From: an uncultured Thiotrichales bacterium
Lineage (GTDB): Bacteria > Pseudomonadota > Gammaproteobacteria > Francisellales > CACEW01
Length of the DNA: 64,000 bases
Assembly (NCBI GenBank): GCA_903870015.1
Contig: CAIQBE010000020.1
Coordinates: 3,143-67,142, forward strand
Reading direction: 5' to 3'
Shown: positions 39,109-58,069 of the stretch, piece after piece
Position numbering within the stretch: position 1 is the first letter of the stretch
How the letters are laid out: each line of letters begins with the position of its first letter
Notes under the pieces: model-generated
The model's input: the letters and a program-made list of their open reading frames with translations, nothing else
Databases searched by the model: none
Told to the model about the DNA's origin: nothing
Made by a program: the position numbers and the translations under genes

Positions 39109-40098
39109 TCACCTATAAAAAACAACAGATAACAAAAAATAATACGGCACTGTCAGCCAATAAAGAATTTTTGGCGTCTTTCGTAGAGACCAAATAACCC
39201 TACCTTTGACTGAAAGTCGAGCATAATTTTTTGCGCCCTCCATGTACATTTTGAATAAATCAAGTTCTTTTTTTCGTAAGAACAGCACAGCACATTGAAA
39301 ATAAACCCGTGACCTCCCCTGCTCACATGCCTCTTTTGAAGCACCATGACCCTCTGCGTAATCAATACTATACATTAAATCTTTAAATACCCCTATAATA
39401 TGATCACGTCGACTACCATTTCGAAATGAGTTCCCTTGCGTATGCTTACGATAAGTCCCCAATACCTCGCCAAGATAGCCTACTTTTCCATATTGGGCAT
39501 TTTGGATATGCCATAAAAAATCACCTACATTCGAAGCACTACAATCCATTCCTTCAGGGGGAATAGCATTTTTACGAAAAACTTTTGATGAGTGAACAAA
39601 AGAACAACCATTTTTAACTAGATAATCTAAATCATACATTTGCGAGGGGTTTGTTTTAAAAGGCCTACTCTCCCCTGCAGAATTAATAACATTCATGGAA
39701 TGCCCAGAGATAGCACACTCTGGATGTGTATCTAAAAAATTAATTTGCTTTTGTAACTTTCCTGGTAACATTAAATCATCGCCATCAAGGTGGGCAATGT
39801 ACTCGCCCTTACAAGCATCATAAATATTTATATAATTCTCATTCCCACCAACCTTACCATCATAAAAGAGTGGAATAATTTTCTCGGGGAATTGAGCAAC
39901 AAAACCTTTAATGATAGCTCTTGTAAAGTCAGTTGAATAATCATCGCCAACAATAATTTCAAATGAAAAGTTAGTCTCTTGTGATAGAACACTTTTTAAA
40001 GTAGCCGCAATAAATTTTTCATGATTATAAGTCCCTATCGCCACACTCACTTTTGGAGTGTTTGTACTGCTATTTTTATTTACCATAGATTCCATCAT
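39109..40098 (-). CDS. Glycosyltransferase family 2
   Basis: VSVAIGTYNHEKFI, GDDYSTD and HLDGDD motifs. Confidence 0.85.
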   Translation of the reverse strand: MMESMVNKNSSTNTPKVSVAIGTYNHEKFIAATLKSVLSQETNFSFEIIVGDDYSTDFTRAIIKGFVAQFPEKIIPLFYDGKVGGNENYINIYDACKGEYIAHLDGDDLMLPGKLQKQINFLDTHPECAISGHSMNVINSAGESRPFKTNPSQMYDLDYLVKNGCSFVHSSKVFRKNAIPPEGMDCSASNVGDFLWHIQNAQYGKVGYLGEVLGTYRKHTQGNSFRNGSRRDHIIGVFKDLMYSIDYAEGHGASKEACEQGRSRVYFQCAVLFLRKKELDLFKMYMEGAKNYARLSVKGRVIWSLRKTPKILYWLTVPYYFLLSVVFYR

Positions 40099-40182: not shown

Positions 40183-40929
40183 CTATGCCCCCTTTTCACA
40201 CATCAGGAAGATACTCGAACATAGATCGGGATATTGCTGACCAAGTTTGTAGCACCCCTCTAGATATTCTCTGGAAACAATATCTGTGCGCAGTAGCTTA
40301 TCCCATTGAAAATTTGCCAGCGCTTTAAAGAAAATTCCAGAACGATAAACGACATTGAGGCCTGCAGCCACAGCATCACATTCTAGAGTATCTAATGAAT
40401 AGGTGCAGTGATGACCATGCTCTGCTTCCGCCTGCGTGACCGCGGCGTTATGAGTGATTAAGCCCATTTTAACTGCTATTTGCCGTGAAGGTGCATTCGC
40501 ATTCGGGCAAACTAGGAATAACCGCCCATCTTCAGCCAGCCATTCGTCGTTAATGCGCTTAAGCACTAAAACTGGATCTGCTATATGCTCTAAGACATGT
40601 GTTAATACAATATTGTCATAGCGTTTGGGAAGGGTTGCTGCTTCAAATGTTGAGTTAATTAATGTGATGTTCTTCTTGCCTAATTTTTCTTTGGCTTCAG
40701 CTAAGGCGATATCTGAAGCTTCAACACAGGTAATATCATTGAAGTAAGGTAGCAGTCTTTTGGTGAAGTCGCCCTTAAAGCTTCCTAATTCAAGCAGACT
40801 GCCATTTCTAAAAAATGGCTCAAATGATTTAATCATGTAAGGATGAATGACATCGTAATCAAAGCCATAAAAATAGTTACGCCCCTCGTTATCAATAATT
40901 TCTTTATTAAAGTCTCTTGTTGTAGTCAT
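40183..40929 (-). CDS. Class I SAM-dependent methyltransferase
   Basis: 248 aa. Motif I variant LLELGSFKGDF and post-I acidic residue (VEASD). Confidence 0.75.
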   Translation of the reverse strand: MTTTRDFNKEIIDNEGRNYFYGFDYDVIHPYMIKSFEPFFRNGSLLELGSFKGDFTKRLLPYFNDITCVEASDIALAEAKEKLGKKNITLINSTFEAATLPKRYDNIVLTHVLEHIADPVLVLKRINDEWLAEDGRLFLVCPNANAPSRQIAVKMGLITHNAAVTQAEAEHGHHCTYSLDTLECDAVAAGLNVVYRSGIFFKALANFQWDKLLRTDIVSREYLEGCYKLGQQYPDLCSSIFLMCEKGA

Positions 40930-40955
40930 TTTCTTCTCCTTCTATCTATTATTTA

Positions 40956-41912
40956 TTACAAACTGACTAATTTTGCCAATCCAAACCCCTGTTTGCCAAA
41001 CTCATTGCCATTATAGAGCATATAAATATTTTCATCACACTCAAAGACATTAGGGTAGCACATCATGTCAGAATCCCATGAATTTTCTGTTCTATAAATT
41101 CCCACATTTGTATCGTCTCGAGTCCAGTTGATCATGTCATCTGAAAATGCATATCCAAGACGATAGGCATTGTTTTTATTCTGGCGAAAATCATAAGCAT
41201 TTCGATAACAAAAATACATATGGTAACGTCCACCAGCATGAAATACTGTAGGCAGTGCCTGGCACTCACTGGCCAATCTAACAGCTACAATCATTTTGCC
41301 ATCTCGCACCCAGTTTATACCATCTTGTGATGAAGCATGTGCAATTTTATAGAAGCGCTCAGGATCTATATTGGAACTCGATTGATGCCATTTGGTCCCA
41401 AAGATATACCACATGTGAAAAGTACCATTAATTACTTTGACAAAAGGATCACCAACAAGAAAAGGCTCCCTATATGTCATTGTCATAACAGGACCACCAT
41501 CTCCATACTTATTGAAATGGATGCCATTGTCTTCGCTTATCGCTAGGCCAATGCTCATATCAACTGATACGGATGTTCGTCGACTCCAGCCAGATGTGTA
41601 AGCCCATATCCTACCTTCATGCCTTAGCACATTAATGGGAAATATTCCATGTTCATCAAATTCACCAAGTCGACCCAACTCAATCACGGGATCAACTGAA
41701 ATCCTTAGTATCCTATCAAAGCTTTTATTAAAGTCAACATATTGAGGACAGCTTACATATTTGTTGTTGGCTGTTTTTTTTTGAGCACAAAAATAAATTC
41801 TAACAAAATCATCAAAAACCAGAGCTTGAGGAGATTTTGCAAACACAGTACACCCTTGTGCTAAAATATGTTCCGATGGATCAAATATTTTTCCAAGCTT
41901 TTTCCATTGCAT
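40956..41912 (-). CDS. Beta-propeller (GH32/43/68/130-like fold) protein of unknown function, paralog 1
   Basis: 318 aa. Repeated W/Y-rich blade motifs, N-terminal KIFDP and GINWVRD / INWTRDD repeats. Roughly 40% identical by eye to the next gene. Confidence 0.6.
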   Translation of the reverse strand: MQWKKLGKIFDPSEHILAQGCTVFAKSPQALVFDDFVRIYFCAQKKTANNKYVSCPQYVDFNKSFDRILRISVDPVIELGRLGEFDEHGIFPINVLRHEGRIWAYTSGWSRRTSVSVDMSIGLAISEDNGIHFNKYGDGGPVMTMTYREPFLVGDPFVKVINGTFHMWYIFGTKWHQSSSNIDPERFYKIAHASSQDGINWVRDGKMIVAVRLASECQALPTVFHAGGRYHMYFCYRNAYDFRQNKNNAYRLGYAFSDDMINWTRDDTNVGIYRTENSWDSDMMCYPNVFECDENIYMLYNGNEFGKQGFGLAKLVSL

Positions 41913-42886
41913 TATCGTAACTCTCCGTTCAGCTCAGCCAACCCGAATCCTGTTCTACCGTTACCATTTCCAGCATATAGCATATAAATTTTACCATCCA
42001 ACTCAAATACATTAGGATATGCAACCATCTCCGAATCCCACCCACTGTCAGAAATATCAAGATTGACTTGTGAATCATCACGATGCCAATGTAATAAATC
42101 CGTTGAGCTGGCATAACCAATTCTGTAACTTGCATTTTTGTTGTCACGAAAACCTAAGCCTTTACGATAGCAAAAAAACATATGATACTTGCCATTGGCA
42201 TACAAGATATCTGGACTGGCTTGCGCTTCATCATCACCTAATTTACTTGCAACAATATCACGATTTTGTTTGATCCAATTTATGCCATCCAATGAAGTCG
42301 CAATCCTTAATTTATAAATAATTTCTGGACGACCGTCATCACCCAAAATCCAACGTCGACCTGTGGTATAAGCCAAATACCATTGATCTCCATATTTTCT
42401 AATTTTAGGAGAGGTTACAACGAAGGGCTCATCTGGTGAATATGATAGAACTGGACCAGCGCCTATTTTTTCAAAATGCCTGCCTCCATCTGTGCTGCGA
42501 GCTAATCCCAAAGAAATATTGAAGGGCACCGACTCACATCGAGTCCATCCGCCATAAACAGCAATTAAATCGGAGTTATCTTTAATAACGGATACCGGAT
42601 AAGTGCCAAATTCATCAAAAGCTCCTAAGTCGCCTAGCTCTAAAACTGGCTCTTTAGAAATATTGATAATTTCAAATAAATTTTTCCGATTTAAGTCGAC
42701 AAAAGCACAGCGACTGACAAATTGCATATTGGCATCAGGCGCAGGTCGACAACAGAAATAAACCCGCACATAATCGTCAAAAATAATCACATTGGGAGCT
42801 TGCGCAAAACCAAGCATCCATTCTGGTCTATTTGGAATATTTGTAGGATCAAATATCAAGCCTTTTTTTTGCCAACTACTTTTCAT
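41912..42886 (-). CDS. Beta-propeller (GH32/43/68/130-like fold) protein of unknown function, paralog 2
   Basis: 324 aa. LIFDP, GINWIKQ, LLHWHRDD and YPNVFE..KIYMLYAGNG..GFGLA shared with paralog 1. 1-nt stop/start overlaps on both sides. Confidence 0.6.
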   Translation of the reverse strand: MKSSWQKKGLIFDPTNIPNRPEWMLGFAQAPNVIIFDDYVRVYFCCRPAPDANMQFVSRCAFVDLNRKNLFEIINISKEPVLELGDLGAFDEFGTYPVSVIKDNSDLIAVYGGWTRCESVPFNISLGLARSTDGGRHFEKIGAGPVLSYSPDEPFVVTSPKIRKYGDQWYLAYTTGRRWILGDDGRPEIIYKLRIATSLDGINWIKQNRDIVASKLGDDEAQASPDILYANGKYHMFFCYRKGLGFRDNKNASYRIGYASSTDLLHWHRDDSQVNLDISDSGWDSEMVAYPNVFELDGKIYMLYAGNGNGRTGFGLAELNGELR

Positions 42887-43500
42887 TATTTATCTCCATT
42901 TAATTGTGTCATTTGAGACTTAATCAGCCTTACTGCAGCGACAAGTAATTTGTTTTCTTCTTGAAAAATTCGCCCCCCCAGTTGCCAGGGCGTTTCGACA
43001 GGATCAACTTTAATGGTTTTTTGCAAAATTATTTGTCCCTCATCAATTCCTGCATTTACATAATGCACTGTACATCCTGCTTCTTCTTCATTGGCATGCA
43101 TTACTGCTTCTTGTACCTTGACGCCATACATACCTCGTCCACCATATTTTGGCAACAAAGAAGGATGTGTGTTGATGATTTTTAAATGCCACTTATCGCA
43201 GAAATTCTTGGGAATAATCGGCATAAATCCTGCCAATACGATGAGATCTGTACTTTGTGGAACGGCATGCTCAAAGGCCACAGAAAAAGCCTCTTTTACA
43301 CCCGAGGCATCTAGAGCTTCACAAGGAATACCATGAGCACAGGCACGATCAACAGCTCCACAAGGCCTATCAACGATTAGTTTACTTATCTCGATACCCA
43401 ATTCTTCTTGAGCATCAATCAGTGCCTGAAAGTTTCCTCCACCACCAGAAGCACAGACAACTATTCGAAAAGGTTGATTGATTATTACGTATCGCCTCAT
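42886..43500 (-). CDS. Sugar N-formyltransferase (PurN/Fmt N-terminal-domain type)
   Basis: 204 aa. INTHPSLLPKYGG motif with catalytic Asn/His, and Asp in GIDEGQII. Confidence 0.82.
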   Translation of the reverse strand: MRRYVIINQPFRIVVCASGGGGNFQALIDAQEELGIEISKLIVDRPCGAVDRACAHGIPCEALDASGVKEAFSVAFEHAVPQSTDLIVLAGFMPIIPKNFCDKWHLKIINTHPSLLPKYGGRGMYGVKVQEAVMHANEEEAGCTVHYVNAGIDEGQIILQKTIKVDPVETPWQLGGRIFQEENKLLVAAVRLIKSQMTQLNGDK

Positions 43501-43510
43501 AGGTATACCA

Positions 43511-44212
43511 CTAAATTAAATCATAATTACATAAAACAAATTTTTTGACGTCAGTGAATGCGTTAAACATCATCACATCAATGATAGAAAGATAAGGTAT
43601 AAAAGAGCCAGTGTCAAATTGTTTATATCGTACATCATTCATTTTTAGAAAAGATAAATTAATACCTGCAGCATGGAAAGCAGCTTTATCGTATAACTCA
43701 ACGCCCCCGATAGGATTAATATAATCAATAGCCTCACAGACCTGACAAATTTCCAGGACCCGCTCTTGTGCTTTTAGAGATCCAAGCTTCATATCCTCTG
43801 ACTTTAAAAATTGTGTTTTCATTTTTAAATATGCCGACAAAATATGAATACTATTTTCTATGTATTTAAAAAGATTAAGTTCCTCAAACAGAATAATTTC
43901 AGTTAAAAGCTCTATCGTATCATGAAAAAAAGGGGCTTTTCGATAGGTATTTTCTATTTGCCGTAATAACTTCTTTTTATCATTTGGATCGCAAAGCATA
44001 CGCGTATTAATTGCATCATAAGCAGAGGCTTTTTTTAAAGGCAACGTAATCCAAACCGCTCCTAAATTTTGATCTAATATTCGATTTCTATTGATATACC
44101 CGCCTTTAATGTATTGAATATCATTGTGGAATACAAAAATATCAACCGCATTCATTAATTGAAAATAACCCAAATAGGGGAATAAATAAGGCTGCATAAT
44201 CGCAAGTTTCAT
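43511..44212 (-). CDS. WbqC-family protein (function unknown)
   Basis: The start MKLAIMQPYLFPYLGYFQL is typical of WbqC-like proteins. ATGA overlap with the upstream aminotransferase stop. Confidence 0.75.
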   Translation of the reverse strand: MKLAIMQPYLFPYLGYFQLMNAVDIFVFHNDIQYIKGGYINRNRILDQNLGAVWITLPLKKASAYDAINTRMLCDPNDKKKLLRQIENTYRKAPFFHDTIELLTEIILFEELNLFKYIENSIHILSAYLKMKTQFLKSEDMKLGSLKAQERVLEICQVCEAIDYINPIGGVELYDKAAFHAAGINLSFLKMNDVRYKQFDTGSFIPYLSIIDVMMFNAFTDVKKFVLCNYDLI

Positions 44213-45291
44213 AACCCCAAACCTCGACGAATGGTACCAGATATTTTTTCTAAATCCAGTTCTGTTAACCCTGGATAAATTGGCAAACACAAAACTCTTT
44301 TTGAAAGATCTTCACTCACTGGCATTTTCACATAATCCACATAGGATAATGTATTGAGCGATGGATAAAAATAGCGCCGAGGAATGATACCTTGTACTTT
44401 TAAATCGGCAACAGCCTGTAGAAGTTGCATCTCAGTTTCAAAAATAACTGGAAAATATGCGTAATTGGCTATGGCATTCTTATGAATTGAGAGCTGAACC
44501 AAAAATGACGGTAAATGCTCCCGATAATATCGATCTATTTTTTGACGCTCGGCTAAAATACAACCCATATCTTCCAAAACACACAAACCCATCGCCGCAT
44601 GGAATTCGCTCATTTTAGCATTAATTCCAAGCCCCTCAATCTTCCCACTCCCCAGCCGATCAAAACCAAAATTTATCATGTCACTGGCTCGTTTAAAAAC
44701 AGCATCATCTTTAATAATTAATGCACCACCCTCAACCGTATGAAAGAGCTTAGTAGCGTGAAAGCTAAGTACGGAAATATCACCATAATTTAATACACTT
44801 TGCCCACAATATTTCACGCCGAAAGCATGAGCAGCATCGTAAATTATTTTTAATTTATATTGTTGTGCAATATTGGCAATTTTTTCAACCCCACAAACAT
44901 TCCCATAAACATGTACAGGCAAAATAGCAGAGGTTTTTGAGGTAATTGCTGATTCTATTTGGTTTTCATCAATACAGAATGTGCATGGCTGAATGTCTGT
45001 AAATTTAGGAGTTAAGCCTTCCCAGACTAAAGAGCTTGTGGTCGCAACGAAGCTAAAGGGACTGGTTATAACCTCATTCTGTAATCCTAAAGCCTTATAT
45101 GCTATTTGCAAGCCAATCGTGGCATTGGCAACTAAAAGCAGATTCTTTACTCCTAAATAAGCCTCCAATTTTTGGGTAAGCAATTGGACGCATTGACCAT
45201 TATTAGTCAACCAAGCAGAACTATAGATCTTTTCCAAATATTCGCAATATTTTTCTTTTGAAGGAAGATAACTTTTAACAACATTAATCAT
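44209..45291 (-). CDS. DegT/DnrJ/EryC1-family sugar aminotransferase
   Basis: 360 aa. PLP lysine in LSFHATKLF and DAAHAFG motif. Confidence 0.88.
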   Translation of the reverse strand: MINVVKSYLPSKEKYCEYLEKIYSSAWLTNNGQCVQLLTQKLEAYLGVKNLLLVANATIGLQIAYKALGLQNEVITSPFSFVATTSSLVWEGLTPKFTDIQPCTFCIDENQIESAITSKTSAILPVHVYGNVCGVEKIANIAQQYKLKIIYDAAHAFGVKYCGQSVLNYGDISVLSFHATKLFHTVEGGALIIKDDAVFKRASDMINFGFDRLGSGKIEGLGINAKMSEFHAAMGLCVLEDMGCILAERQKIDRYYREHLPSFLVQLSIHKNAIANYAYFPVIFETEMQLLQAVADLKVQGIIPRRYFYPSLNTLSYVDYVKMPVSEDLSKRVLCLPIYPGLTELDLEKISGTIRRGLGL

Positions 45292-45298
45292 AATAAAC

Positions 45299-46321
45299 TT
45301 ATTTATTTATTGTTATATTACTGGTTAAAATAATATTTTTGCACAAAATATACCCCTTACGAATATAAGCCCTTTGCTTCATCGAAAAAAATATCGACAA
45401 TATCAAGCGATGAAAGTGTTTTGCACTCACATAGGCAAGATAGAGACCACTAGCATAGTCTTTTTTTAACTGCAGCAATATATCCCGTACTTCTTTTAGC
45501 TCTTTTACTGATCGTATATGGCAAAAAATGAGTAAAACAAAATAATCACAAAATGCCTTATCTAATCTATCATGCGAAAACCGACAAATACTTCTATAAG
45601 CGATTAAAAAATCCTCCAATCTATACTTTAATGACTTCCAGCAAGTATTTGAGGTGTTAACGTTACTAAGCCGATAATGACTCAGTACTTGATGATCAAT
45701 AAAAACCCTTCCAAATAAAGCACAACAAATAACTGATTGTACATCAACATTGTAGCAATGTTCCCATTTGCCTATTTGCTTTACAATATTCATTCGATAG
45801 ACAATTCCCGACCAACAAATAAAAAGTTTGTTTTCACACCATTTTTTAAAATAATCCTCACCACTCACAATAAGATCTTGATTTTGTTTGTTATGCTGAA
45901 TTTTTTCAGCCGTCGCATAAGAACCGTTTCCTATAAAGTGATCTGTTTTTGACGCATACAGAACAATGTCATTGTCGAGCGCCATGCATTCTACTGACCT
46001 CGCGCACAATATAGGTTCAATCAAATCATCGTCTGATAAAATAAGAAGATACTCTCCCTTTGCATGCTCAGGAATTTGTTGAAAATTGGCAATGGGCCCT
46101 ATGTTTTCACTGTTTCTGACAATACGAAGTCTGTTATCATTAACAGCACAAGCCTTAATATATTCAAATGTCCCATCATCAGAGTGATTATCCAAAAGCA
46201 CTATTTCCAAATTAGGATAAGTTTGGGCTTGCGCTGATGCCAAAGCTTCTTTTAATAAAGAAAGTCGATTATAGGTTGGAATCACAATAGAAAACAAAGG
46301 AACTGAATCGCTATGCTCCAT
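45299..46321 (-). CDS. Glycosyltransferase family 2
   Basis: FSIVIPTYNR...LDNHSDDGT and SDDD motif. Confidence 0.82.
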   Translation of the reverse strand: MEHSDSVPLFSIVIPTYNRLSLLKEALASAQAQTYPNLEIVLLDNHSDDGTFEYIKACAVNDNRLRIVRNSENIGPIANFQQIPEHAKGEYLLILSDDDLIEPILCARSVECMALDNDIVLYASKTDHFIGNGSYATAEKIQHNKQNQDLIVSGEDYFKKWCENKLFICWSGIVYRMNIVKQIGKWEHCYNVDVQSVICCALFGRVFIDHQVLSHYRLSNVNTSNTCWKSLKYRLEDFLIAYRSICRFSHDRLDKAFCDYFVLLIFCHIRSVKELKEVRDILLQLKKDYASGLYLAYVSAKHFHRLILSIFFSMKQRAYIRKGYILCKNIILTSNITINK

Positions 46322-47815
46322 TTATTTAAACCCACGGGTGATTAAAAGCCTCATTATCTCACGCTCACCGGGAGTTAGCAAGATATACCAGAATAAGACA
46401 AAACTAAAAGCGCCAAAAACACCCCCTAATAAAATAATGGGCGGGATATGAGTTATATATAGAAATTTTTTGCTCATTTCTAGGAAAGAAAATAAAATGA
46501 TGCAGCATAAAATGATTGGAGCCGCATATTCAAAAACGAATTGTCTTAGCGTAATTTTTAAAAATTTTAAAGAAATCAAAACGACATACCAATTCGAAGT
46601 GAGCAATTGCCCCAAAAACACAGCCCATCCTGCGCCAACAACTCCATAACGTGGAAGAAGAAAAATTAAAAATAAAATATTTAAGGCTCCCCCTGCCCAA
46701 ACGGGAATTAAAGCAAACTTTATATAACCACAACTCATAACAACAGAAGCCAAGGTATCTTGCTGAATCTGTAATACAATCATGATAGATAAAAGTAGTA
46801 ACAAAAGATGGTTTAAATGATATTGCGGGCCCAACCAAATTGCAAAAATAAGATCTCCAAAGAAATTTAGGTAAAACAAAATGCAAACCAAAGCCAAAAC
46901 ATTAAATTTTAAAAAAATTAAAGTTGGTTGCTGTAATGCTTTGATACCTTGCTTCGCAAAAATGGAAGATATGAAGGGGAAAAGGCTCGATTGCCCTAGC
47001 ATGGCTAAAGTCATCAGTATCGTTATCGCTTGAAATGGCGGCATAAAAGATACAGCAGCTGTTGCAGTAAGATAATGCGCTACAATAGGCGCGTTAATTT
47101 GGAAGATAAAATAACCACCCAAATAAATCATAAATAATCGCCCCCCTTGGCCCAAGAGGTATTGTCTATGTTTCCTTATTTTAGTGTACGCATTGGTTTT
47201 AACTTGAGCTTTCCAAAAAGCAAGTAAAAAAAGGCTCGCACTTTGTACCAAGAAGGTGAGCGTAAAAATAAGTAAGGTTTTTACAAAACAGAGGGCTACA
47301 ATTAAAAATAAGAAACTCATTATTGTTGAAACGGATCGAAGATTTCGTTCCTGTTTTACATTTTTGCTACCATAAATAGAAGCAAGATATGGGTTCGCCA
47401 ATAATCGCAGTAAGGCAGACACTAGAAATATTAAAATGCTAATTTTTAGCTCGGGATGATCCAAAGGGGAGGTAATACCCATGAAATACCAAAAAACTAA
47501 CGGTGCACTAATCACAAAACACCCTACAGAGAGCCTACGATTTAAACTTTTTGCGGCAGAGAATAACATTTTTTTTCGTATTTCTTTACCCCCCCCCTCT
47601 GCCAGACTCGTCTCTCGGGATAACGTTTGACTAATTCCAAAATCACACAACCCAAGCATCCCATTAAATCCTATAAACAATAAAAACACCCCTGCAAATG
47701 ATGCATTAAGCTCGCGGACCACTAATCCTGAAATCAAAAATCCAAAAAGCATCGCCGTCAATAAATTGATATAATTGGCAAATATGCCCGATAAAGCTTT
47801 TTTTATGTCTGACAT
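46322..47815 (-). CDS. wzx: O-unit flippase (Wzx, MOP superfamily)
   Basis: 497 aa, about 12-14 TM segments. Position and topology are typical of Wzx. Confidence 0.75.
   Translation of the reverse strand: MSDIKKALSGIFANYINLLTAMLFGFLISGLVVRELNASFAGVFLLFIGFNGMLGLCDFGISQTLSRETSLAEGGGKEIRKKMLFSAAKSLNRRLSVGCFVISAPLVFWYFMGITSPLDHPELKISILIFLVSALLRLLANPYLASIYGSKNVKQERNLRSVSTIMSFLFLIVALCFVKTLLIFTLTFLVQSASLFLLAFWKAQVKTNAYTKIRKHRQYLLGQGGRLFMIYLGGYFIFQINAPIVAHYLTATAAVSFMPPFQAITILMTLAMLGQSSLFPFISSIFAKQGIKALQQPTLIFLKFNVLALVCILFYLNFFGDLIFAIWLGPQYHLNHLLLLLLSIMIVLQIQQDTLASVVMSCGYIKFALIPVWAGGALNILFLIFLLPRYGVVGAGWAVFLGQLLTSNWYVVLISLKFLKITLRQFVFEYAAPIILCCIILFSFLEMSKKFLYITHIPPIILLGGVFGAFSFVLFWYILLTPGEREIMRLLITRGFK
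47589..47597 (-). repeat. Poly-G9 (coding strand) homopolymer inside wzx
   Basis: Plus-strand C9 counted at 47589-47597, encoding GAG GGG GGG GGT. An A8 tract (plus-strand T8 at 47569-47576) follows 12 nt downstream. Confidence 0.9.
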
Positions 47816-48315
47816 AACAATGTTCTCAAAAGAGCCTCTTTAAAATTAACACGATTATATAATCCTAGAGACGTTTTTGCTAATTCAATACTGGGAACAT
47901 AACGGCTAATTTCTATGGGATCTGTGAGGGAGGATAGTGTAAGCGACAAATGAGGCTCAGCTATCTCAGCAACAAATTGAGCAACCTCCTGCAAAGTATA
48001 ATCTTCAGCAGAGCCAACATTATAGGGATTAACGGACTGCCCTGAGACTAAAATAGTCCACAACCAAATGACTAAATCAGAAGGATATTGATAACATAAG
48101 TGTTCAGACATACATTTTCCAAGACTATAGGCACCACGCACACCGTATAGATTGGGAGCTATCGACATGGATTCACTTAAATGCTTGACATCTAAAGGCT
48201 GCTCACCATAAACAGCTCCAGAACTTGTTAGCAATATTTTGGGTTGCATTTTTAATTGGCGACAAAAATCTAACAAGTGTCTCGTACCATTGATAATAGT
48301 ATCTAGCATTTCCAA
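47803..48315 (-). pseudogene. Truncated extended-SDR epimerase/reductase (no Rossmann N-terminus, internal deletion)
   Basis: Begins at the NGTRHLL region, about residue 85-90 of such enzymes. Keeps the YSLGK catalytic dyad but lacks GxxGxxG. About 50 residues are missing before NPYNVGS. Confidence 0.7.
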
Positions 48316-48740
48316 AGACGCATTTTCAATTCAGGAAAACTCACATCAGAAAAACCATCACCATAGGTAAAACAAAAATCATCTTGATCTAAATAAGATT
48401 TAACACGCTTTAACCACACTCCCGTCATCGTTTCATCGCCCGTACCTACAAAGGTAATTTTCCAGGGCTCAGCATATTTTTGATGCACTTCCATTTTGTT
48501 ATGCTGCATATCAAAAGCGACATCAGACATATGCAAAAAATAATTTGCAAAATACTCTTTAATGACATAGCCTTTATAGGCCAAGCAAATAAGAAAATCA
48601 TTAATGCCGTAGTGGGAATAAATTTTCATGATATGCCATAAAATAAGCCTGCCACCAATTTCTACCATGGGTTTGGGACGAAGGGAGGTCTCTTCAATGA
48701 TTCTTGTACCCAACCCTCCTGCTAAAATAACTGCTTTCAT
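48303..48740 (-). pseudogene. Truncated glucose-1-phosphate cytidylyltransferase (N-terminal 137 of about 256 residues)
   Basis: 21 differences over the first ~137 residues against the intact rfbF at 54959-55729 (hand count). It then diverges and runs into the SDR fragment. Confidence 0.8.
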
Positions 48741-50945: not shown

Positions 50946-52682
50946 TTACGTACCTTCCATCTCAAGCGGTTTAACAAATGGCTCCATATCCGTAATAGGT
51001 CGACCAAAGGCAATCTTAGGATAAACATGAAGACTAGGCTCAATCATCACTTGCAATAATGCCGGTTGCTTTGGATCAGCCCAAAGCCAATGCATAGCAT
51101 CATGAATTTCATTATCCTGACTAATCGTCTTGGCAGTAATCCCATAAGCTTGAGCTACCGCTTCAAAATTAGGCGCACTATAACCCCAATAAGTTGACTG
51201 GTATCGACTATCAAAATAACTATCTTGAAACTGGCGAATCATCCCCAAACTCTGATTATTTAATACGATAATTTTGATGGGTAGTTGATTGCGCACAATG
51301 GTCTGCAACTCTTGAATATTCATCTGTAAACAACCATCCCCGACAATAACCACCACTGGCTGCTTTTGACAAGCAAAAGAAAAGCCCATGGCTGCGGGCA
51401 AAGCATAACCCATGGCCCCCATACCTGCTGAAGTAACGAACAATTGACTCTTTAATATTTCCAAGGATTGTGCCGACCACATTTGATGACTACCAACATC
51501 AACGGAATAACCTACTGCTACCTGCGAAGACTGGGAAAGCGCGTGTATAAATACATTAGGGTTAATCCCCTGAACATCTTTAAGCTCGTTAAGGTCTGGC
51601 CACTGGGCTTTTAGCTTTAAAATATACGCAATCCAATCATCACAGGAAAATTTGCTTAACAAATTAGCTTTTGTTTTTGCGAAAAAAAGATCAAAAAACA
51701 CCTGCAAATCAGTGACCATGGGAATGCAGCCAGGAATTCGATTATTAATTTCACCGATATCACAATCCACATGAATAATCGTTTTGTTCGCCGCAAATGC
51801 TTGGGTATCAGCCCCAGTTTGTCGAATATCAAGACGACTGCCTAATACCAGCAGCAAATCACTTTCAGCAAAGGCGATATTTGCCCAACGATTACCATAA
51901 CTACCAATAAAACCAACACGTAAAGGATGATCATACGGCATGAGATCTAAGCCTAAAAGAGAAGTAACCACAGGCATTTGACACAACGCTACAAATTCCA
52001 AAAAAGAGGCCCTAGCCCTTGCTGCATTGACCCCTCCTCCTGCCAAAATCAAGGGCCGCTTTGCTGTTGCAATAGCGTTAACAAGCACATCAATATTTTC
52101 TAATTTTGTAGTATCAAGCCCCCGCTCCCTAAATAATTCAACAGGGGGCGGACACTCTATTTGCACACGTTGTATATTCATGGGAATATCAATTAATACA
52201 GGGCCAGGACGACCACTCACACTTATTTTATAGGCCTGTTCTAATAAGCTCGGCAGATCTTCAGCACGTTCAACCTGCACCGCCCACTTGGTAATAGGCA
52301 AGGCCATGCTGACAATATCTGTTTCTTGAAAGCCAAGTTGACGAATGGCTTTCATACCTTTTTGCTCGTGAGTATTCACCTGCCCTGTGATAAAAATAGC
52401 AGGACAAGAATCAAAATAACAACCAGCAATCCCTGTCAATAAATTGGTAGCGCCTGGGCCACTTGTTGCCAATGCAACGCCTGGCTTACCCGTAATTCGG
52501 CCAAAGGCATCTGCAGCAAAAGCCCCTGCTTGCTCATGATGCACGCTAATGATATTCACTTGTCCCCTTTTATGGAGGGAATCGAGAATATGCGTAATCA
52601 TACCGCCAGCAACTTCAAATACATGACTAATTTTTTGGGCACCAATAAATTCAGCAATATAGTCACTCGCCTTGTATTTCAT
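50946..52682 (-). CDS. Thiamine-diphosphate-dependent enzyme (acetolactate synthase large subunit / YerE-like)
   Basis: 578 aa. ThDP motif GDGCLQMNIQELQT...VLNN and N-terminal Pyr domain (catalytic-Glu region HHEQAGAFAADAF). Confidence 0.85.
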   Translation of the reverse strand: MKYKASDYIAEFIGAQKISHVFEVAGGMITHILDSLHKRGQVNIISVHHEQAGAFAADAFGRITGKPGVALATSGPGATNLLTGIAGCYFDSCPAIFITGQVNTHEQKGMKAIRQLGFQETDIVSMALPITKWAVQVERAEDLPSLLEQAYKISVSGRPGPVLIDIPMNIQRVQIECPPPVELFRERGLDTTKLENIDVLVNAIATAKRPLILAGGGVNAARARASFLEFVALCQMPVVTSLLGLDLMPYDHPLRVGFIGSYGNRWANIAFAESDLLLVLGSRLDIRQTGADTQAFAANKTIIHVDCDIGEINNRIPGCIPMVTDLQVFFDLFFAKTKANLLSKFSCDDWIAYILKLKAQWPDLNELKDVQGINPNVFIHALSQSSQVAVGYSVDVGSHQMWSAQSLEILKSQLFVTSAGMGAMGYALPAAMGFSFACQKQPVVVIVGDGCLQMNIQELQTIVRNQLPIKIIVLNNQSLGMIRQFQDSYFDSRYQSTYWGYSAPNFEAVAQAYGITAKTISQDNEIHDAMHWLWADPKQPALLQVMIEPSLHVYPKIAFGRPITDMEPFVKPLEMEGT

Positions 52683-52703
52683 GTCAGCCCCGAGCCTTGA
52701 TAA

Positions 52704-53903
52704 TTAAAATTGCTTTAAAAAAAGCGCCGTAGACTCATGCATATGCCCAACCATTTCATCGTTAAGCCCATGATGACACGCCTGCAAAATACCTCCGCGC
52801 ATGACATCATCAGTATGGACATAACCAGCATCACTTTGTCGGCGCGCAATCGTCTGAAAGCCCGGTTGACGCAAAATATTTCCAGTAAAAATAGTCCGAG
52901 TCTGAATATTGCGCTTTTCTAAAAATATTTGCATATCCGTTCGACTAAAGGGTGCATCAGAACGGACTGTTAAAGGAAAAGCCAACCAGCCAGTACGTGA
53001 GTTAGGCAACTGCTTAGGTAAAATAAAAAATTGCTCGTACTGCTTGTAAAAGTCTAAATGCTGCTGAAACCATTTTTCACGTAGATCAATATTCAAATCA
53101 AGCTTTTTCAACTGCACCGTACCAAAAGCTGCACCCATTTCACTAGGCTCAATGTTATAACCCAAGCGCTCAAAAATAAATTTGGCATCATAACGAATGC
53201 CTTCAACAAAAACATTAAAGCGATTTTCGATAGCTTCAGATTCAACAAATAATGATGAACTACGACCCCAACTGCGCAAAAGCTTGGCTTCTGTCATCTC
53301 TTTTTCTTGATTAAAGCAGACCATCCCACCATTACCACCACAATTAATCACATGCGAGCCATAAAAACTGGTGGTACTCATATCGGTAAAGCGCCCAGAA
53401 GATTTTCCATCAATTAAGGCCCCTAGAGTATCTGCCGAATCCTCTATAACGAGCAAGTTATATTTATCAGCCAAAGCCCGAAGTTTTTTCCAGTCCGGTA
53501 AATTACCTAAAAGATTGGGAATCATCATCGCCCTGGTTTGAGGCGTGATCATGGCTTCAACTTGATTGGCATCAATATTGTATGTGCCTGGCTCTACATC
53601 CACAAAAGCAGGGATCAAATCACTTTTAACGATCGGCGCTACGGTCGTTGAGAACGTTAACACCGGCGTAATCACTTCAGATTTTGGCGGAAGATTGGCA
53701 ATTTCAATGGCGAGATAATTGGCAGATGAACCCGAGTTCACCATCACACCATATTTTTTATCAAACTTCGCAGCAACGCCGGTTTCCATCTCAGTAACAT
53801 GTTTACCCATTTGCGTGCTGGTCCGTAACACATGAGTCACTGCCGCAATTTCCTCTTCACCATGGACAGTGCATCCATAGGGCACACGAATAAAATCAGT
53901 CAT
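52704..53903 (-). CDS. rfbH: Nucleotide-sugar 4-keto-6-deoxyhexose 3-dehydratase (RfbH/DdhC/ColD family)
   Basis: NSGSSANYLA motif, and His replaces the PLP lysine (TSFYGSHVI). ATGA overlap with the rfbG stop if the start is 53903. An alternative ATG lies at 53909. Confidence 0.82.
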   Translation of the reverse strand: MTDFIRVPYGCTVHGEEEIAAVTHVLRTSTQMGKHVTEMETGVAAKFDKKYGVMVNSGSSANYLAIEIANLPPKSEVITPVLTFSTTVAPIVKSDLIPAFVDVEPGTYNIDANQVEAMITPQTRAMMIPNLLGNLPDWKKLRALADKYNLLVIEDSADTLGALIDGKSSGRFTDMSTTSFYGSHVINCGGNGGMVCFNQEKEMTEAKLLRSWGRSSSLFVESEAIENRFNVFVEGIRYDAKFIFERLGYNIEPSEMGAAFGTVQLKKLDLNIDLREKWFQQHLDFYKQYEQFFILPKQLPNSRTGWLAFPLTVRSDAPFSRTDMQIFLEKRNIQTRTIFTGNILRQPGFQTIARRQSDAGYVHTDDVMRGGILQACHHGLNDEMVGHMHESTALFLKQF

Positions 53904-54955
53904 GAACATCTCCTTGAAAAAGTTTGAATTTGATTAACGGTAAACTGTAGCATATCCTGATTACCACGCAAAGCTTGATACCAGTCAACAATCATAGTTA
54001 AAGCTTCATTGATATTAAGCACAGGATGCCAATCTAAATGCGTTTCGGCTTTTTGGATATCAAGCTTTAAATAATGAGCTTCGTGCGGATGCTGGCCTGG
54101 ATCCTGCTGCCAAGCCCCTTGACCAAATCCTGAAATTAAAGCCTCAACAATTTGCGCCACTGTTTTGGCATCTTGGCTATAGGGCCCAAAATTCCAGGCT
54201 TCCGAAAATTCTTGGGGCTGATTCCATAATTTTTCAGCCAACACAAGATAACCATGCAATGATTCTAATACATGTTGCCAAGGACGTATGGCATTGGGAT
54301 AGCGGAGGTTGACGGTTTCATTTTTTTGAATCGCCCGAATAAAATCAGGAATTAAACGATCCACAGAAAAATCACCACCACCAATGACATTCCCTGCTCT
54401 TGCAGTTGCCACGCCTATTTTTTGCGTATCAAAAAAAGAATTACGGTAAGACGCCATCACCAACTCCGCACAGGCTTTACTGGCACTATAAGGATCATAG
54501 CCCCCCATAGGCTCATTTTCACGATAAGGCCACACCCATTCTTTATTTTCATAACATTTATCGGTGGTAATCACAACGATGCTTTTCAACGAGGGAATGT
54601 GACGCGCAGCTTCTAGCACATGCACCGTCCCCATGACATTACTCATGTAATTTTCAATGGGATTGTTATAAGATTCGCGCACCAAGGGCTGAGCTGCTAG
54701 ATGAAATAAAACCTCAGGCTCACTTGCCCGCATGGCTTTTAAAATGCTGTCGTACTGATTGATATTACCGATCTCACTATCGATCAAACGCTCAAGGCCC
54801 GCTAGCTTAAAAAGCGCGGGCTCTGTATTAGGCGCCAAAGCAAAGCCTTTGACTTTTGCACCCAAAGTGCTGAGCCATAAACTCATCCATGAGCCCTTAA
54901 AGCCCGTATGCCCGGTTAAAAAAACTTTTTTATCTTTCCAAAAAGTATGATTCAT
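53900..54955 (-). CDS. rfbG: CDP-glucose 4,6-dehydratase
   Basis: 351 aa. TGHTGFKGSW Rossmann motif and YSASKACAE catalytic dyad. Confidence 0.9.
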   Translation of the reverse strand: MNHTFWKDKKVFLTGHTGFKGSWMSLWLSTLGAKVKGFALAPNTEPALFKLAGLERLIDSEIGNINQYDSILKAMRASEPEVLFHLAAQPLVRESYNNPIENYMSNVMGTVHVLEAARHIPSLKSIVVITTDKCYENKEWVWPYRENEPMGGYDPYSASKACAELVMASYRNSFFDTQKIGVATARAGNVIGGGDFSVDRLIPDFIRAIQKNETVNLRYPNAIRPWQHVLESLHGYLVLAEKLWNQPQEFSEAWNFGPYSQDAKTVAQIVEALISGFGQGAWQQDPGQHPHEAHYLKLDIQKAETHLDWHPVLNINEALTMIVDWYQALRGNQDMLQFTVNQIQTFSRRCS

Positions 54956-54958
54956 CGA

Positions 54959-55729
54959 CTATTTCCAAACTTTCCAAGGCGCCTTGCCCGATTGCCATAG
55001 CTCTTCTAAAAGATGTTTTTCGCGCAAAGTATCCATGGGCTGCCAAAAGCCCTTATGAAAATAAGCACTCATTTGGCACTCAGTAGCAAGTCGGTGCATA
55101 GGCTCCTGCTCCCAAAGTGTGTGACCCCCATCAATATAATCAATCACTTTGGGAGACAATACAAAAAAGCCACCATTAATCCAAGCACCATCACCCCGTG
55201 GTTTTTCTTTAAAAGAAAGCACTTGATTCTCTGAAAACTCAATGGCACCAAAGCGACCCGGAGGCTGTGTTGCCGTAACAGTTGCCAAACGCCCCTCTTT
55301 TTTGTGAAGCGCTATCAGCTCATGAATATTGACATCAGAAAGGCCATCACCATAGGTAAAACAAAAATCCTCTTGATCTAAATAAGGCATAACCAGCTTT
55401 AGGCGACCCCCAGTCATAGTTTCATCGCCTGTATCTAACAAAGTCACTTTCCAGGGTTCAGCGTGTTTTTGATGCACTTCCATTTTATTATGCTGCATAT
55501 CAAAGGTCACATCAGACATATGCAAAAAATAATTAGCAAAATACTCTTTAATAACATAGCCTTTATAACCTAAACAGATAACGAAATCATTGATCCCATA
55601 ATGAGAGTAAATCTTCATGATATGCCACAAAATCGGCTTACCCCCAATTTCAACCATAGGCTTGGGGCGAAGTGATGTTTCCTCGCTAATACGCGTCCCT
55701 AAACCCCCTGCTAAAATAACTGCCTTCAT
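54959..55729 (-). CDS. rfbF: Glucose-1-phosphate cytidylyltransferase
   Basis: 256 aa. [38 protein letters not shown]. Confidence 0.92.
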
Positions 55730-56706
55730 ATTATCCCCAAATCTAATAAGACCAATCGCTTCAAATGTGCTTTAAAATCCATAGTGGCACTCCAGTGCAA
55801 TGCTTTAACAAGCTTCGTTGAATCAATCGCATACCGCCAATCATGCCCAGGGCGATCCGTCACAAAACGAATCAAAGAATGATAAGACTGCTCGCGCGGC
55901 TTTAACTCATCAAACAAATCACAAATCAATTTCACAATATCAATATTGGCCCATTCATTGTGACCACCGACATTATACACATCGCCGATCTTACCCTGAC
56001 GCAAAATCAAATCAATCGCAGCACAATGATCCTCAACATACAGCCAATCACGAATATTACTGCCATTGCCATACACAGGAATTGGATGCCATTCTAAACA
56101 AGAACGAATTACCGTCGGAATAAATTTTTCAGCATGCTGCAAAGGACCAAAATTATTAGAACAATTTGAAGTCGTCACCGCCAAACCATAAGTATGATGA
56201 TACGCCCGGACCAAATGATCTGACCCTGCTTTCGACGCCGAATAAGGCGAATTAGGCGCATACTGTGTTGCCTCAGTAAAAGGCAGATCATTCGGCCCCA
56301 GAGTGCCATAAACCTCATCGGTAGAAATATGATGAAAACGGCATTTTGCTTTGCGTGCCGCCTCTAACAAGCTATGCGTACCCAAAACATTAGTTCTCAC
56401 AAAAATCGCCGGATCTTTAATAGAATTATCCACATGCGATTCTGCAGCAAAATGTACTATCGTATCAATCTCATGCTCTTGCAAAAGCCTTTCAACCAAG
56501 GCTTGATCACAGATATCCCCCTGCACAAAAATATGACGGTCTGGATGCGGAAGACCCGCAAGATTATCCAGCGAACCCGCATAGGTTAAAAGATCTAAAT
56601 TGACAATCAAACTCTCAGGATAGTGCTTTTGCCAATAATGGATAAAGTTAGCGCCAATGAAGCCCGCCCCGCCAGTCACCAGCAGTTTTTTTAACTTAAA
56701 CTGCAT
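55726..56706 (-). CDS. rfbB: dTDP-glucose 4,6-dehydratase
   Basis: Start at [21 protein letters not shown], catalytic YSASKAGSD. The track ORF carries a 22-codon 5' extension. Confidence 0.92.
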
Positions 56707-57526
56707 ACATATCCTGTAATTCCTCTTGCCATGAGCACTGACAAATCCCAAAAATTTTGTTGATTCTATCACAACTCAACACCGAATTCGATGGCCGCTT
56801 CGCCTTCACCGGATACTCCGCCGTGGTAATCGGCACAAGAGTGCACTTTTCTGGATCAACAAAGCTTTTAGCAAAATCATACCAGGTCGTTTGCGGTGCA
56901 TCAGTATAATGATAAATACCCCAATGCGATGTTAACTGTGGATGCGCTAACAAAGCCAAAATCACTTTGGCAATATGGGATGCTCCAGTAGGTGAGCCGT
57001 GTTGATCCGCGACAATTTTCAGCTGATCACGCTCTTGTGACAGTCGCGTAATTGTTTTGACAAAGTTATTGCCAAAGCGCCCAAAGACCCAGCTGACCCT
57101 TAAAATAATATGTTTATCCCAAGTCGCTTGCAGCAATGCCTCTCCGGCAAGTTTAGAGCCGCCATACACACCCTGAGGATTAGGAGTGTCCGTTTCAAGA
57201 TAAGCAGCTTTTTTAGTGCCATCAAAAACATAATCCGTGGAGATGTGAATCATCGGGACATTATATTCTGCACAAGTTTTTGCAAGATTGGCAACACCCA
57301 TGGCATTCACAGCAAAAGCCTTTTCAGGCTCATCTTCCGCTTTATCCACCGCCGTATAGGCTGCACAATTGACCAGATAATCAACCCCCGAAAGATCTGC
57401 TAAATCAGACTGAGTAATATCTAACGCTTTTGATGAGTATGCTAGTACTTCATGACCCGCTGCTTTTGCTAGCAAAGTAAGCTCTTGCCCCAATTGCCCA
57501 TTAGCCCCTGTAATGAAAAGCTTCAT
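56696..57526 (-). CDS. rfbD: dTDP-4-dehydrorhamnose reductase
   Basis: 276 aa. MKLFITGANGQLG and YGGSK motifs. Confidence 0.9.
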   Translation of the reverse strand: MKLFITGANGQLGQELTLLAKAAGHEVLAYSSKALDITQSDLADLSGVDYLVNCAAYTAVDKAEDEPEKAFAVNAMGVANLAKTCAEYNVPMIHISTDYVFDGTKKAAYLETDTPNPQGVYGGSKLAGEALLQATWDKHIILRVSWVFGRFGNNFVKTITRLSQERDQLKIVADQHGSPTGASHIAKVILALLAHPQLTSHWGIYHYTDAPQTTWYDFAKSFVDPEKCTLVPITTAEYPVKAKRPSNSVLSCDRINKIFGICQCSWQEELQDMYAV

Positions 57527-58068: not shown

Positions 58069-58069
58069 T

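Follow-up and report, generated by a model that had tools for sequence, protein, structure and literature searches.

The analysis presented here concerns six genes on the minus strand, at positions 40183-45291 of a 64,000-nt window (the whole stretch of DNA analyzed; coordinates refer to it unless another locus is named) from contig CAIQBE010000020.1 of an uncultured Thiotrichales bacterium. These genes form a cassette of two exchangeable sub-modules that recurs in unrelated phyla and may tailor a nucleotide sugar for surface glycans. In the direction of transcription, they are as follows.

44209-45291, minus strand: DegT/DesI/VioA-like pyridoxal phosphate-dependent aminotransferase (DegT), 360 aa (Pfam PF01041, 7.6e-85)
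43511-44212, minus strand: WbqC-family protein, 233 aa from its ATG (Pfam PF08889, 8.6e-64)
42886-43500, minus strand: PurN-type N10-formyltetrahydrofolate formyltransferase (FT), 204 aa, single domain (Formyl_trans_N, 1e-36)
41912-42886, minus strand: propA, predicted five-bladed beta-propeller, 324 aa, cytoplasmic (weak GH32N, GH130 and GH43 Pfam matches, AlphaFold2 model, Foldseek)
40956-41912, minus strand: propB, paralogue of propA, 318 aa, 44% identical to it (weak GH32N, GH130 and GH43 Pfam matches)
40183-40929, minus strand: class I S-adenosylmethionine-dependent methyltransferase (MT), 248 aa (Methyltransf_23, 3.7e-16; orthologue of ECA1738)

The six open reading frames (ORFs) and their junctions, which a first-pass annotation had described as tightly coupled, were all verified in the sequence: an ATGA overlap joins DegT and WbqC at 44209-44212, TAATG one-base overlaps join FT to propA at 42886 and propA to propB at 41912, and gaps of 10 and 26 nt separate WbqC from FT and propB from MT, respectively. 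The coupling was borne out by these junctions and by the recurrence of the genes across loci. Since public gene calls give WbqC as 233 aa, its start was assigned to the ATG spanning 44212-44210, downstream of the GTG used in the mechanical ORF list. Promoter- or terminator-like sites within the six-gene block were not more frequent than in shuffled sequences. Pfam agreed with the identities previously given to DegT, WbqC, formyltransferase and methyltransferase, and the motifs quoted for the cluster (HPSLLP, N-terminal FDP, INW..D and YPNVFE...IYMLY.GN..G..GFGLA) were all found.

Recurrence and modularity of the cassette

Scanning one genome per species yielded 430 relatives, of which 80 loci were fetched (some counts below use 91 loci, for the presence of WbqC or a ligase, or 63 loci, for a GT2 glycosyltransferase after MT). 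The fetched loci span at least 10 phyla, and their taxa include Proteobacteria, Bacteroidota, Verrucomicrobiota, Firmicutes, Elusimicrobia, Planctomycetota, Acidobacteriota, Chloroflexi, Omnitrophota, Campylobacterota and the candidate phyla radiation (CPR). By tblastn and all-against-all clustering of the loci, DegT, WbqC, propA, propB and MT co-occurred almost everywhere, and propA preceded propB in 80 of the 80 loci carrying both. WbqC, FT (or another acyl gene) and the propellers thus recur together in about 80 loci, and because the gene set and its order are the same in unrelated phyla, the arrangement is far beyond chance. The median pairwise identity was highest for MT (0.72), the most conserved protein of the cassette, followed by propA (0.63), propB (0.58), WbqC (0.51) and DegT (0.43).

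PropA was 65-80% identical across Rhodoferax, Bacteroidota, Opitutae, Paenibacillus and others. Its relatives numbered more than 6,000 among 90%-identity protein clusters, and 4,579, 1,824 and 508 at E <= 1e-3, 1e-10 and 1e-30, respectively, among 1.84 billion 50%-identity representatives, nearly all of them single-domain proteins of 300-330 aa. The best match to the window among species representatives was 77%, and its closest relative was a metagenome contig (L086). Carriers include plant pathogens (Dickeya and Pectobacterium), rhizobia, Legionellales-like Rickettsiella, Bacteroidota and Firmicutes; a blastn search with propA-propB-MT gave no match in 5,426 complete Escherichia coli genomes. 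The cassette is also present on Rhizobium leguminosarum megaplasmids. On pRlvE of strain UPM791 (L085, 10337-11930), an IS3 transposase gene lies between DegT and WbqC, and WbqC is cut to 132 aa; since the insertion truncates WbqC, this copy is probably inactive. WbqC was intact on the other R. leguminosarum plasmids.

The cassette consists of two sub-modules, DegT-WbqC and acyltransferase-propA-propB-MT. The acyl slot of the second had three mutually exclusive contents: a PurN-type FT (approximately 20 loci), a small GNAT (approximately 50 loci), or a set of an ATP-grasp protein, a metallophosphoesterase, a short-chain dehydrogenase/reductase (SDR) and a NodS-like methyltransferase (six loci; referred to as the ATP-grasp set). 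The nearest neighbor of propA shared its acyl type in 42 of 42 GNAT loci and 18 of 18 FT loci; the corresponding figures for DegT were only 35 of 42 and 14 of 18. PropA and propB showed the tightest co-evolution of any pair in the cassette (r = 0.79), and the acyltransferase-propA-propB(-MT-GT2) block was found alone, beside housekeeping genes and without adjacent DegT or WbqC, in three loci (L039, L069 and L048). Because of this tracking of acyl type, the co-evolution of the two propellers and the stand-alone occurrence, the second block behaves as a unit. DegT and WbqC in turn occur without propellers in Aliiroseovarius and in Pseudomonas stutzeri EPS273 (PMC5532660).

A reduced module, propA-propB-GNAT, lies among housekeeping genes in Marinifilaceae (L039, 9995-12387; L069, 9992-12386), where its insertion points differ slightly and are next to a superoxide dismutase gene. 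It is conserved like the flanking core genes, with synonymous changes far outnumbering non-synonymous ones, and is under purifying selection. In Labilibaculum (L078, 473-3580), WbqC is added to the Marinifilaceae reduced module.

The cassette in the window is a mosaic of the two sub-modules. The window and L086 are syntenic, with 80% identity for Wzx, 81% for GT2, 67% for DegT and 79% for WbqC on one flank, and 76% for GT2, 77% for Wzy and 80% for AsnB on the other; the block between WbqC and the downstream GT2 gene is replaced in L086, where propA, propB and MT are 58, 53 and 43% identical to those of the window and FT is absent, with the ATP-grasp set in its place. The window propA, propB and MT were closest to those of beta-proteobacterial FT-type loci (77-82%). 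These sequence comparisons indicate that the cassette is horizontally mobile and swapped, and the exchange between the window and L086 offers a concrete case of surface-antigen diversification by the exchange of "finishing" blocks.

Isolated copies have been noticed before. The fliA-fliC insertion of Dickeya zeae WH1 carries genes annotated as MT, hypothetical, glycosylase, WbqC, hypothetical and DegT (PMC9650423); this is the same gene set as in the window, reported at the level of annotation only. A solved structure exists for the Pectobacterium atrosepticum orthologue of MT, ECA1738 (PDB 2P7H/2P7I; PMC7107822), a structural-genomics protein without an assigned function; MT matches it at E 7.3e-121 over residues 1-247. 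In the literature on WbqC, 2P7H/ECA1738, GH130 in O-antigen loci and flagellin islands, we found annotation-level mentions only. Among the uncharacterized glycan-tailoring modules seen in this analysis, the cassette is one of the more widespread, and its sites, O-antigen loci and flagellin glycosylation islands, are those at which bacterial surface antigens are varied.

WbqC and the acyl slot

The best NCBIfam match of DegT was DesI (TIGR04427, 254 bits against a cut-off of 650), and its best PDB match was also DesI (2po3, 6e-58). The genes rmlA-rmlD lie approximately 10 kb upstream of the cassette and score above curated cut-offs; RmlA and RmlB are therefore predicted to supply dTDP-4-keto-6-deoxyglucose, in agreement with the dTDP-4-keto precursor attributed earlier to rfbA/rfbB.

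WbqC matched PF08889 with 215.8 bits (cut-off 21.3; model positions 4-215 of 218) and had no relative among solved structures by sequence. When its AlphaFold2 model (mean predicted local distance difference test, pLDDT, 90.9) was compared with the PDB by Foldseek, BshC was the sole significant match (E 4.9e-4, probability 1.0, TM-score 0.45), and class-I tyrosyl-tRNA synthetases (TyrRS) followed it in the list. The invariant N-terminal motif MQPY-FPY-x-GY comes after strand 1, where this fold carries HIGH. Distant homologues of WbqC on Bacillus and Mycobacterium plasmids are encoded between a FemAB-like aminoacyl-transferase and a BshB-like deacetylase. Furthermore, in two loci (L037 and L084), the WbqC slot is filled by an L-amino-acid-ligase (LAL)/PurD-type ATP-grasp protein, with the GNAT slot still filled. 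This protein matches ATP-grasp_3/4, PylC-like_N and LAL_C2, and its best PDB match was 4dim, annotated as glycinamide ribonucleotide (GAR) synthetase (8e-27), with L-amino-acid ligase 3vot at 7e-15. WbqC was present in 86 of the 91 loci and the LAL-type ligase in two; no locus had both.

The BshC/class-I aminoacyl-tRNA synthetase fold, the surroundings of the distant homologues and the displacement by an ATP-grasp ligase together suggest that WbqC is an amino-acid:amino-sugar ligase. That it joins an amino acid, probably glycine, to a sugar 4-amine we regard, from model, sequence and analogy, as a reading about evenly poised. WbqC had been listed among the components without an established role: no characterized family claims it, in keeping with that listing, but fold, context and displacement point to a carboxylate-amine ligase.

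Two known systems offer parallels. In the bacillithiol and mycothiol pathways (BshB-BshC and MshB-MshC-MshD), the amine of an amino sugar is unmasked, an amino acid is added and N-acylation follows; BshC is the sole significant fold match of WbqC, and a BshB-like deacetylase stands beside its distant homologues, but WbqC has only 233 aa and carries Y-x-G-Y instead of HIGH. The MshD part of the analogy was rejected, the 300-aa "GNAT" beside the distant homologues being FemAB-like and not MshD-like, and the mycothiol pathway serves here only as an analogy for the aminoacylation of an unmasked sugar amine. The second parallel is the N-acetylglycyl-Qui4N pathway. A passage of PMC5532660 derives the name of the WbqC family from the Shigella dysenteriae 7 cluster; the O-antigen of this strain, shared with E. 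coli O121, contains amide-linked N-acetylglycine (PMC7685785), and known substituents of Qui4N are formyl, acetyl, N-acetylglycyl and hydroxybutyryl-alanyl groups (PMC3210612). This pathway, understood as VioA, WbqC and an acetyltransferase, likewise has a DegT-type 4-aminotransferase and a WbqC-family protein of putative function, and its product is a 4-amino-4,6-dideoxyhexose with a capped amino acid (PMC7685785, PMC5532660 and PMC3210612).

The distant WbqC homologues on plasmids of Bacillus cereus (L091, 2464-10321) and Mycobacterium branderi (L093, 1465-10944) lie in a different conserved cluster, which comprises a sugar dehydrogenase, a PseC-like aminotransferase, an epimerase, a second aminotransferase, the FemAB-like protein, WbqC, the BshB-like deacetylase and an MFS transporter, a composition suggestive of a route to an aminoacylated amino sugar that is secreted.

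FT scored 146.3 bits with the PurN equivalog TIGR00639, below its cut-off of 150.1. It matched GAR transformylases at E 1e-25 and sugar N-formyltransferases at 2e-7 to 2.5e-6, and is thus 18 orders of magnitude nearer the former. It aligned end to end with human GART, with the catalytic Asn/His/Asp and the SGxGxN loop kept, both of which are conserved in all 19 cassette FTs examined. The single-domain protein of 204 aa is without the extra C-terminal domain of sugar N-formyltransferases of the WlaRD/VioF/ArnA/FdtF type. FT was found in a glycan cassette in 19-21 loci, which does not correspond to the role of PurN in the purine pathway.

In purine synthesis, PurN and PurT alternate at the formylation of GAR. 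A glycyl-amino sugar would be a glycinamide on a phosphorylated sugar and, by analogy, a mimic of GAR, which makes a PurD-like ligase followed by a PurN-like cap a coherent reading of the cassette. The likeness would extend over both steps, the addition of glycine to a sugar-borne amine and the formylation of the resulting glycinamide: FT is PurN-type, the alternative ligase of the WbqC slot is PurD/LAL-type, and, as with PurT, an ATP-grasp protein alternates with the PurN-type enzyme in the acyl slot. On the other hand, the scaffold would be a dTDP-4-amino-4,6-dideoxyhexose and not phosphoribosylamine, and FT falls just below the PurN cut-off and is located in a glycan locus.

The first-pass annotation had predicted a formamido-dideoxyhexose. 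An aminotransferase-like gene and the dTDP-4-keto precursor, on which this was built, are available, but since FT is of the PurN/GAR-transformylase type, formylation of a glycinamide-like aminoacyl amine fits better than a simple 4-formamido sugar, which is only one option. In that alternative, FT would formylate the 4-amine to yield dTDP-4-formamido-4,6-dideoxyhexose, MT would O-methylate the ring, and WbqC and the propellers would be accessory. Qui4NFo and Qui4NAc are known natural sugars (PMC3210612), and the variant with an ATP-grasp protein and a NodS-like methyltransferase could attach an N-methyl amino acid straight to the sugar amine. The affinity of FT with GAR transformylases and its missing sugar-type domain speak against it, as does the near-universal WbqC, which it leaves unexplained together with its ATP-grasp replacement; a simple formamido sugar is possible but, in our estimation, rather unlikely.

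Several observations weigh against aminoacylation by WbqC followed by capping. GNATs persist in loci without WbqC nearby (L039, L069 and L048), which fits direct acylation of the sugar amine, as in the simple formamido sugar, equally well or better, and some cassette GNATs weakly resemble PseH/WecD, direct acetylators of sugar 4-amines. Moreover, with Y-x-G-Y at the HIGH position, the use of ATP by WbqC is not assured, the match to BshC is weak (TM-score 0.45), and the ATP-grasp displacement is limited to two related Bacteroidota loci, in which the replacement could have a different function. The S. dysenteriae 7/O121 cluster, whose gene content was not confirmed here, differs from the cassette in that, to our knowledge, it has no propeller pair, PurN-type FT or ECA1738-type MT; a search for this cluster via an AsnB-like gene reached only an O65 locus, which was without WbqC.

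The paired propellers and the proposed pathway

Aligned end to end, propA and propB share 44% identity (E 5e-94), and no signal peptide was detected in the sequence of either protein. The AlphaFold2 model of propA (pLDDT 89.7; predicted TM-score, pTM, 0.90) is all-beta with 19 strands, and its Foldseek matches were five-bladed GH137, GH32, GH117, GH43 and GH130 propellers, the best being BT_0996 (TM-score 0.72, approximately 17% identity); GH130 structures 9fj8, 9gph and 7fip were matched with a probability of 1.0 and TM-scores of 0.48-0.72. The five-bladed GH32/43/130-type fold proposed earlier for the two paralogues was thus upheld by a confident model and Foldseek, and in profile searches with both proteins and a structure search with the propA model no well-characterized family with a known function claimed them. 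The whole-protein scores with PF04041 (GH130) were 34.8 and 28.3 bits against a threshold of 26, with no single stretch passing, and the NCBIfam GH130 equivalog NF052550 gave 54 bits against a cut-off of 450. The best relatives at the sequence level were GH130 beta-1,2-mannoside phosphorylases (17-23% identity). The hidden Markov model (HMM) alignments to GH130 are out of register, with blades 3-5 of propA falling on GH130 blades 1-2; because of this shift, transfer of the GH130 proton-donor Asp (EDPR) and phosphate-site residues was dropped.

The hydrolase triad of the GH32/43/68 clan could be followed in the propellers through the HMM alignments that are in register, which are only a part of them. 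RDP of GH32 aligns to T158-S159-P160 of propA (7bwc, domain E 5e-6) and ECP to A223-C224-P225 (1uyp), and DPN corresponds by motif to A30-P31-N32. Family-wide, these positions are A30, G/S159 and A223 in propA, and S27, D155 and A219 in propB, in which the blade-3 Asp (D155) alone is kept. With the triad incomplete in both families, neither protein is a canonical clan hydrolase. Their relationship to the GH32, GH43, GH117 and GH137 proteins (BT_0996, BmSUC1 and Thermotoga maritima invertase) is otherwise evident in the shared fold, with the best Foldseek matches, and in recognizably homologous GH32 blade motifs (APN for DPN, TSP/GDP for RDP, and ACPD for ECPD), but at the sites of their nucleophile/base, transition-state Asp and acid/base Glu, propA has Ala, Gly/Ser and Ala, and propB has Ser, Asp and Ala. 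With the GH130 phosphorylases and dual-activity mannosyltransferase-phosphorylases (Teth514_1788/1789 and Uhgb_MS; 7fip, 9fj8 and 9gph), the propellers share five blades, a cytoplasmic location and the absence of a blade-1 catalytic base; they differ in that they do not belong to mannan catabolism but to biosynthetic cassettes, in which the A-B pair is constant and has an N-acyltransferase next to it.

Residues K7, R41, D91, E92, R116, E153, E220, Q222, H235, C239, R247, R269, D271, D284, Y290 and N307 are invariant in both propellers, and each also has private invariant residues, which argues that both are active, with distinct roles. In the model, the acidic invariants would lie at the inner-strand entrances of blades 2-5, around the usual funnel. 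The earlier reading of the pair as a duplication is correct in that the proteins are paralogues, but the duplication is not local: each belongs to an ancient orthologous group of its own, and A invariably precedes B. Their linkage and co-evolution suggest that propA and propB probably form a heteromer. B-type propellers are fused to the cassette GNAT in three independent 50%-identity clusters; in one of these fusions, the propeller is 47% identical to the window propB, and comparison of the GNAT domain with the stand-alone GNAT of the cassette gives E 5e-25. The existence of such fusions indicates that propB and the acyltransferase act on consecutive steps or as a complex.

Four functions were considered for the pair. 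The non-Leloir role suggested in the first-pass annotation would make the propellers GH130-like glycosyltransferases or phosphorylases, possibly with dual activity, that extend the growing glycan or the tailored sugar by one or two sugar residues, with a sugar-1-phosphate or NDP-sugar as donor. Their best sequence matches are beta-1,2-mannoside phosphorylases, they are cytoplasmic, they have lost the hydrolase triad and keep many invariant Arg and His residues, and bacterial GH130 enzymes with both phosphorylase and GDP-Man transferase activity are documented (PMC12814180). Set against this are the GH130 equivalog score far below its cut-off, and the ties of the pair to an N-acyltransferase (the GNAT fusions and the bare A-B-GNAT trio) instead of acceptor-specific genes. 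A Leloir GT2 or TPR-GT41 accompanies the cassette in most loci, and the same pair serves O-antigens, ABC-transporter glycans and flagellin, with different acceptors. Because of the lost triad, the ties to N-acylation and the GT2 gene directly after the cassette in many loci, we consider glycosyl transfer by the propellers unlikely, and less likely than a tailoring step linked to N-acylation; transglycosylation or phosphorylase-type transfer is still a candidate.

The order aminotransferase, N-acyltransferase, "glycosylase" parallels PseC-PseH-PseG, and the propellers could accordingly be nucleotide-sugar hydrolases or editing enzymes, analogues of PseG/LegG that cleave the sugar-1-O-phosphate bond of the N-acylated dTDP-sugar for re-activation or for disposal of mis-made intermediates. 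The propB-GNAT fusion fits consecutive steps of this kind, GH130 chemistry acts on glycosyl-phosphate bonds, and the HUP fold of WbqC could in principle be that of a nucleotidyltransferase. This function is nevertheless very improbable: the classical catalytic acid and base are missing, two conserved paralogues would be unneeded for one hydrolysis, and the accessory clusters of the cassette loci included no NeuB-type synthase or CMP-transferase. A nonulosonic route of the Pse/Leg type was rejected for this last reason.

We regard as equally improbable a non-catalytic, heteromeric substrate-binding or scaffold module presenting the intermediate to the acyltransferase and MT. The lost triad, the fusion to GNAT and the strong A-B co-evolution are compatible with such a module, but the two paralogues have approximately 25 invariant polar or charged residues in common across phyla; the acidic residues at the entrances of blades 2-5 (D91/E92, E153, E220 and D284), together with H235, R116, R247 and R269, make a pattern typical of an active site.

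There remains the function we prefer, a non-hydrolytic tailoring of the N-acylated dTDP-sugar by the A-B pair. From the sequence evidence it is itself doubtful, though possible: a GH130-type proton donor or phosphate site cannot be mapped from the blade-shifted alignments, and the evidence for the heteromer is confined to linkage and co-evolution.

Long arrays of the same blade type occur in giant, apparently secreted proteins (P0241, 5844 aa; P0321, 1935 aa; P0343, 2300 aa), with 10-33 overlapping propeller-blade matches at 25-30% identity; they carry no other cassette domain and were set aside as irrelevant to the cassette.

With the tailoring function for the propellers, a complete pathway may be proposed, in which we infer not only all substrates and products but also which amino acid is added, how the steps after amination follow one another and what the propellers catalyze. 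RmlA and RmlB would produce dTDP-4-keto-6-deoxyglucose, which the DesI/VioA-like DegT would aminate at C4 to dTDP-4-amino-4,6-dideoxyhexose. WbqC, as a BshC/class-I aminoacyl-tRNA synthetase-like Rossmann HUP protein, would join an amino acid, most likely glycine, to the 4-amine, mimicking on a sugar amine the PurD step of purine synthesis. The PurN-type FT would cap the glycinamide-like amine with a formyl group (cf. Qui4N-GlyAc of E. coli O121), while other lineages would use a GNAT (acetyl) or the ATP-grasp set for the cap. The propA-propB pair, working directly with the acyltransferase, would then carry out a non-hydrolytic step on the N-acylated dTDP-sugar in the glycosyl/phosphate-handling pocket of its GH130-like fold, and the ECA1738-type MT would add a methyl group. 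Adjacent GT2 enzymes would install the finished sugar, with export and polymerization by Wzx/Wzy.

This scheme of a mobile nucleotide-sugar tailoring cassette, from DegT amination through WbqC aminoacylation, acyl cap and propeller step to methylation, has in our view a little less than an even chance of being correct as a whole. The order amination, PurD-like aminoacylation, PurN-like capping, propeller step and methylation is now available for testing. If the scheme is correct, a function would be assigned to the WbqC family PF08889, and a new reaction type would be added to a fold hitherto associated only with the hydrolysis and phosphorolysis of glycosides. More tentatively still, propA and propB may represent a new non-hydrolytic family in the GH32/43/130 superfamily, an obligate A-B pair docked to an N-acyltransferase that performs an undescribed nucleotide-sugar tailoring on an N-acyl(aminoacyl) 4-amino-4,6-dideoxyhexose built by PurD/PurN mimics, the product being a methylated substituent, unrecognized so far, that members of at least 10 phyla would use in their O-antigens and flagellin glycans. 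In kind, as nucleotide-sugar tailoring, the cassette is ordinary; it is unusually widespread, modular and largely uncharacterized.

Glycan context and neighboring genes

The genes next to the cassette in the window, and those for precursor supply, are as follows.

45299-46321, minus strand: GT2 glycosyltransferase directly upstream of the cassette (81% to its counterpart in the syntenic relative L086)
39109-40098, minus strand: GT2 glycosyltransferase directly downstream of MT, candidate transferase for the finished sugar
55726-58936, minus strand: rmlB, rmlD, rmlC and rmlA (all above NCBIfam curated cut-offs)

Across loci, the neighbors of the cassette are GT2/GT4 transferases, Wzx or Wzm/Wzt transporters, extra methyltransferases and RmlA-/RmlB-like genes, the last adjoining it in 10-18 loci; a GT2 gene follows MT directly in 23 of 63 loci. 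In 13-15 loci, TPR-GT41 proteins with flagellin and FliD adjoin the cassette. These neighboring transferases and transporters, and the flagellin, FliD and TPR-GT41 genes, indicate that the cassette feeds both O-antigen/capsule pathways and flagellin glycosylation. In Thalassomonas viridans (L090, 7053-16852), the cassette is immediately preceded by genes for a large adhesin-like protein and an HMW1C-like protein N-glycosyltransferase, and its opposite flank holds rmlA/rmlB-like and FlgO genes; this context suggests use of the sugar in protein glycosylation.

In the window, the mechanical rmlB ORF (55726-56772, minus strand) begins at a GTG and overlaps rmlD by 77 nt; since residue 29 is the first that the dTDP-glucose dehydratase model covers, translation probably begins at a later codon. 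Two broken ORFs occupy 47803-48740 (minus strand), flanked by the Wzx-like gene and the next DegT gene. One of them (48303-48740) repeats in truncated form the intact glucose-1-phosphate cytidylyltransferase at 54959-55729, to which it is 85% identical over 138 aa; the other (47803-48315) corresponds to the C-terminal part of an SDR epimerase/dehydratase that is not related to the intact CDP-glucose dehydratase. Both resemble debris from a past rearrangement of this region. At 50946-55729 (minus strand), the window encodes a second sugar pathway, with RfbF (471 bits) and CDP-glucose 4,6-dehydratase (496 bits) above their cut-offs, an RfbH-like 3-dehydrase below its cut-off (296 bits), and an acetolactate-synthase-like thiamine pyrophosphate enzyme; this is the combination of genes to be expected for synthesis of a yersiniose-type branched-chain 3,6-dideoxyhexose.

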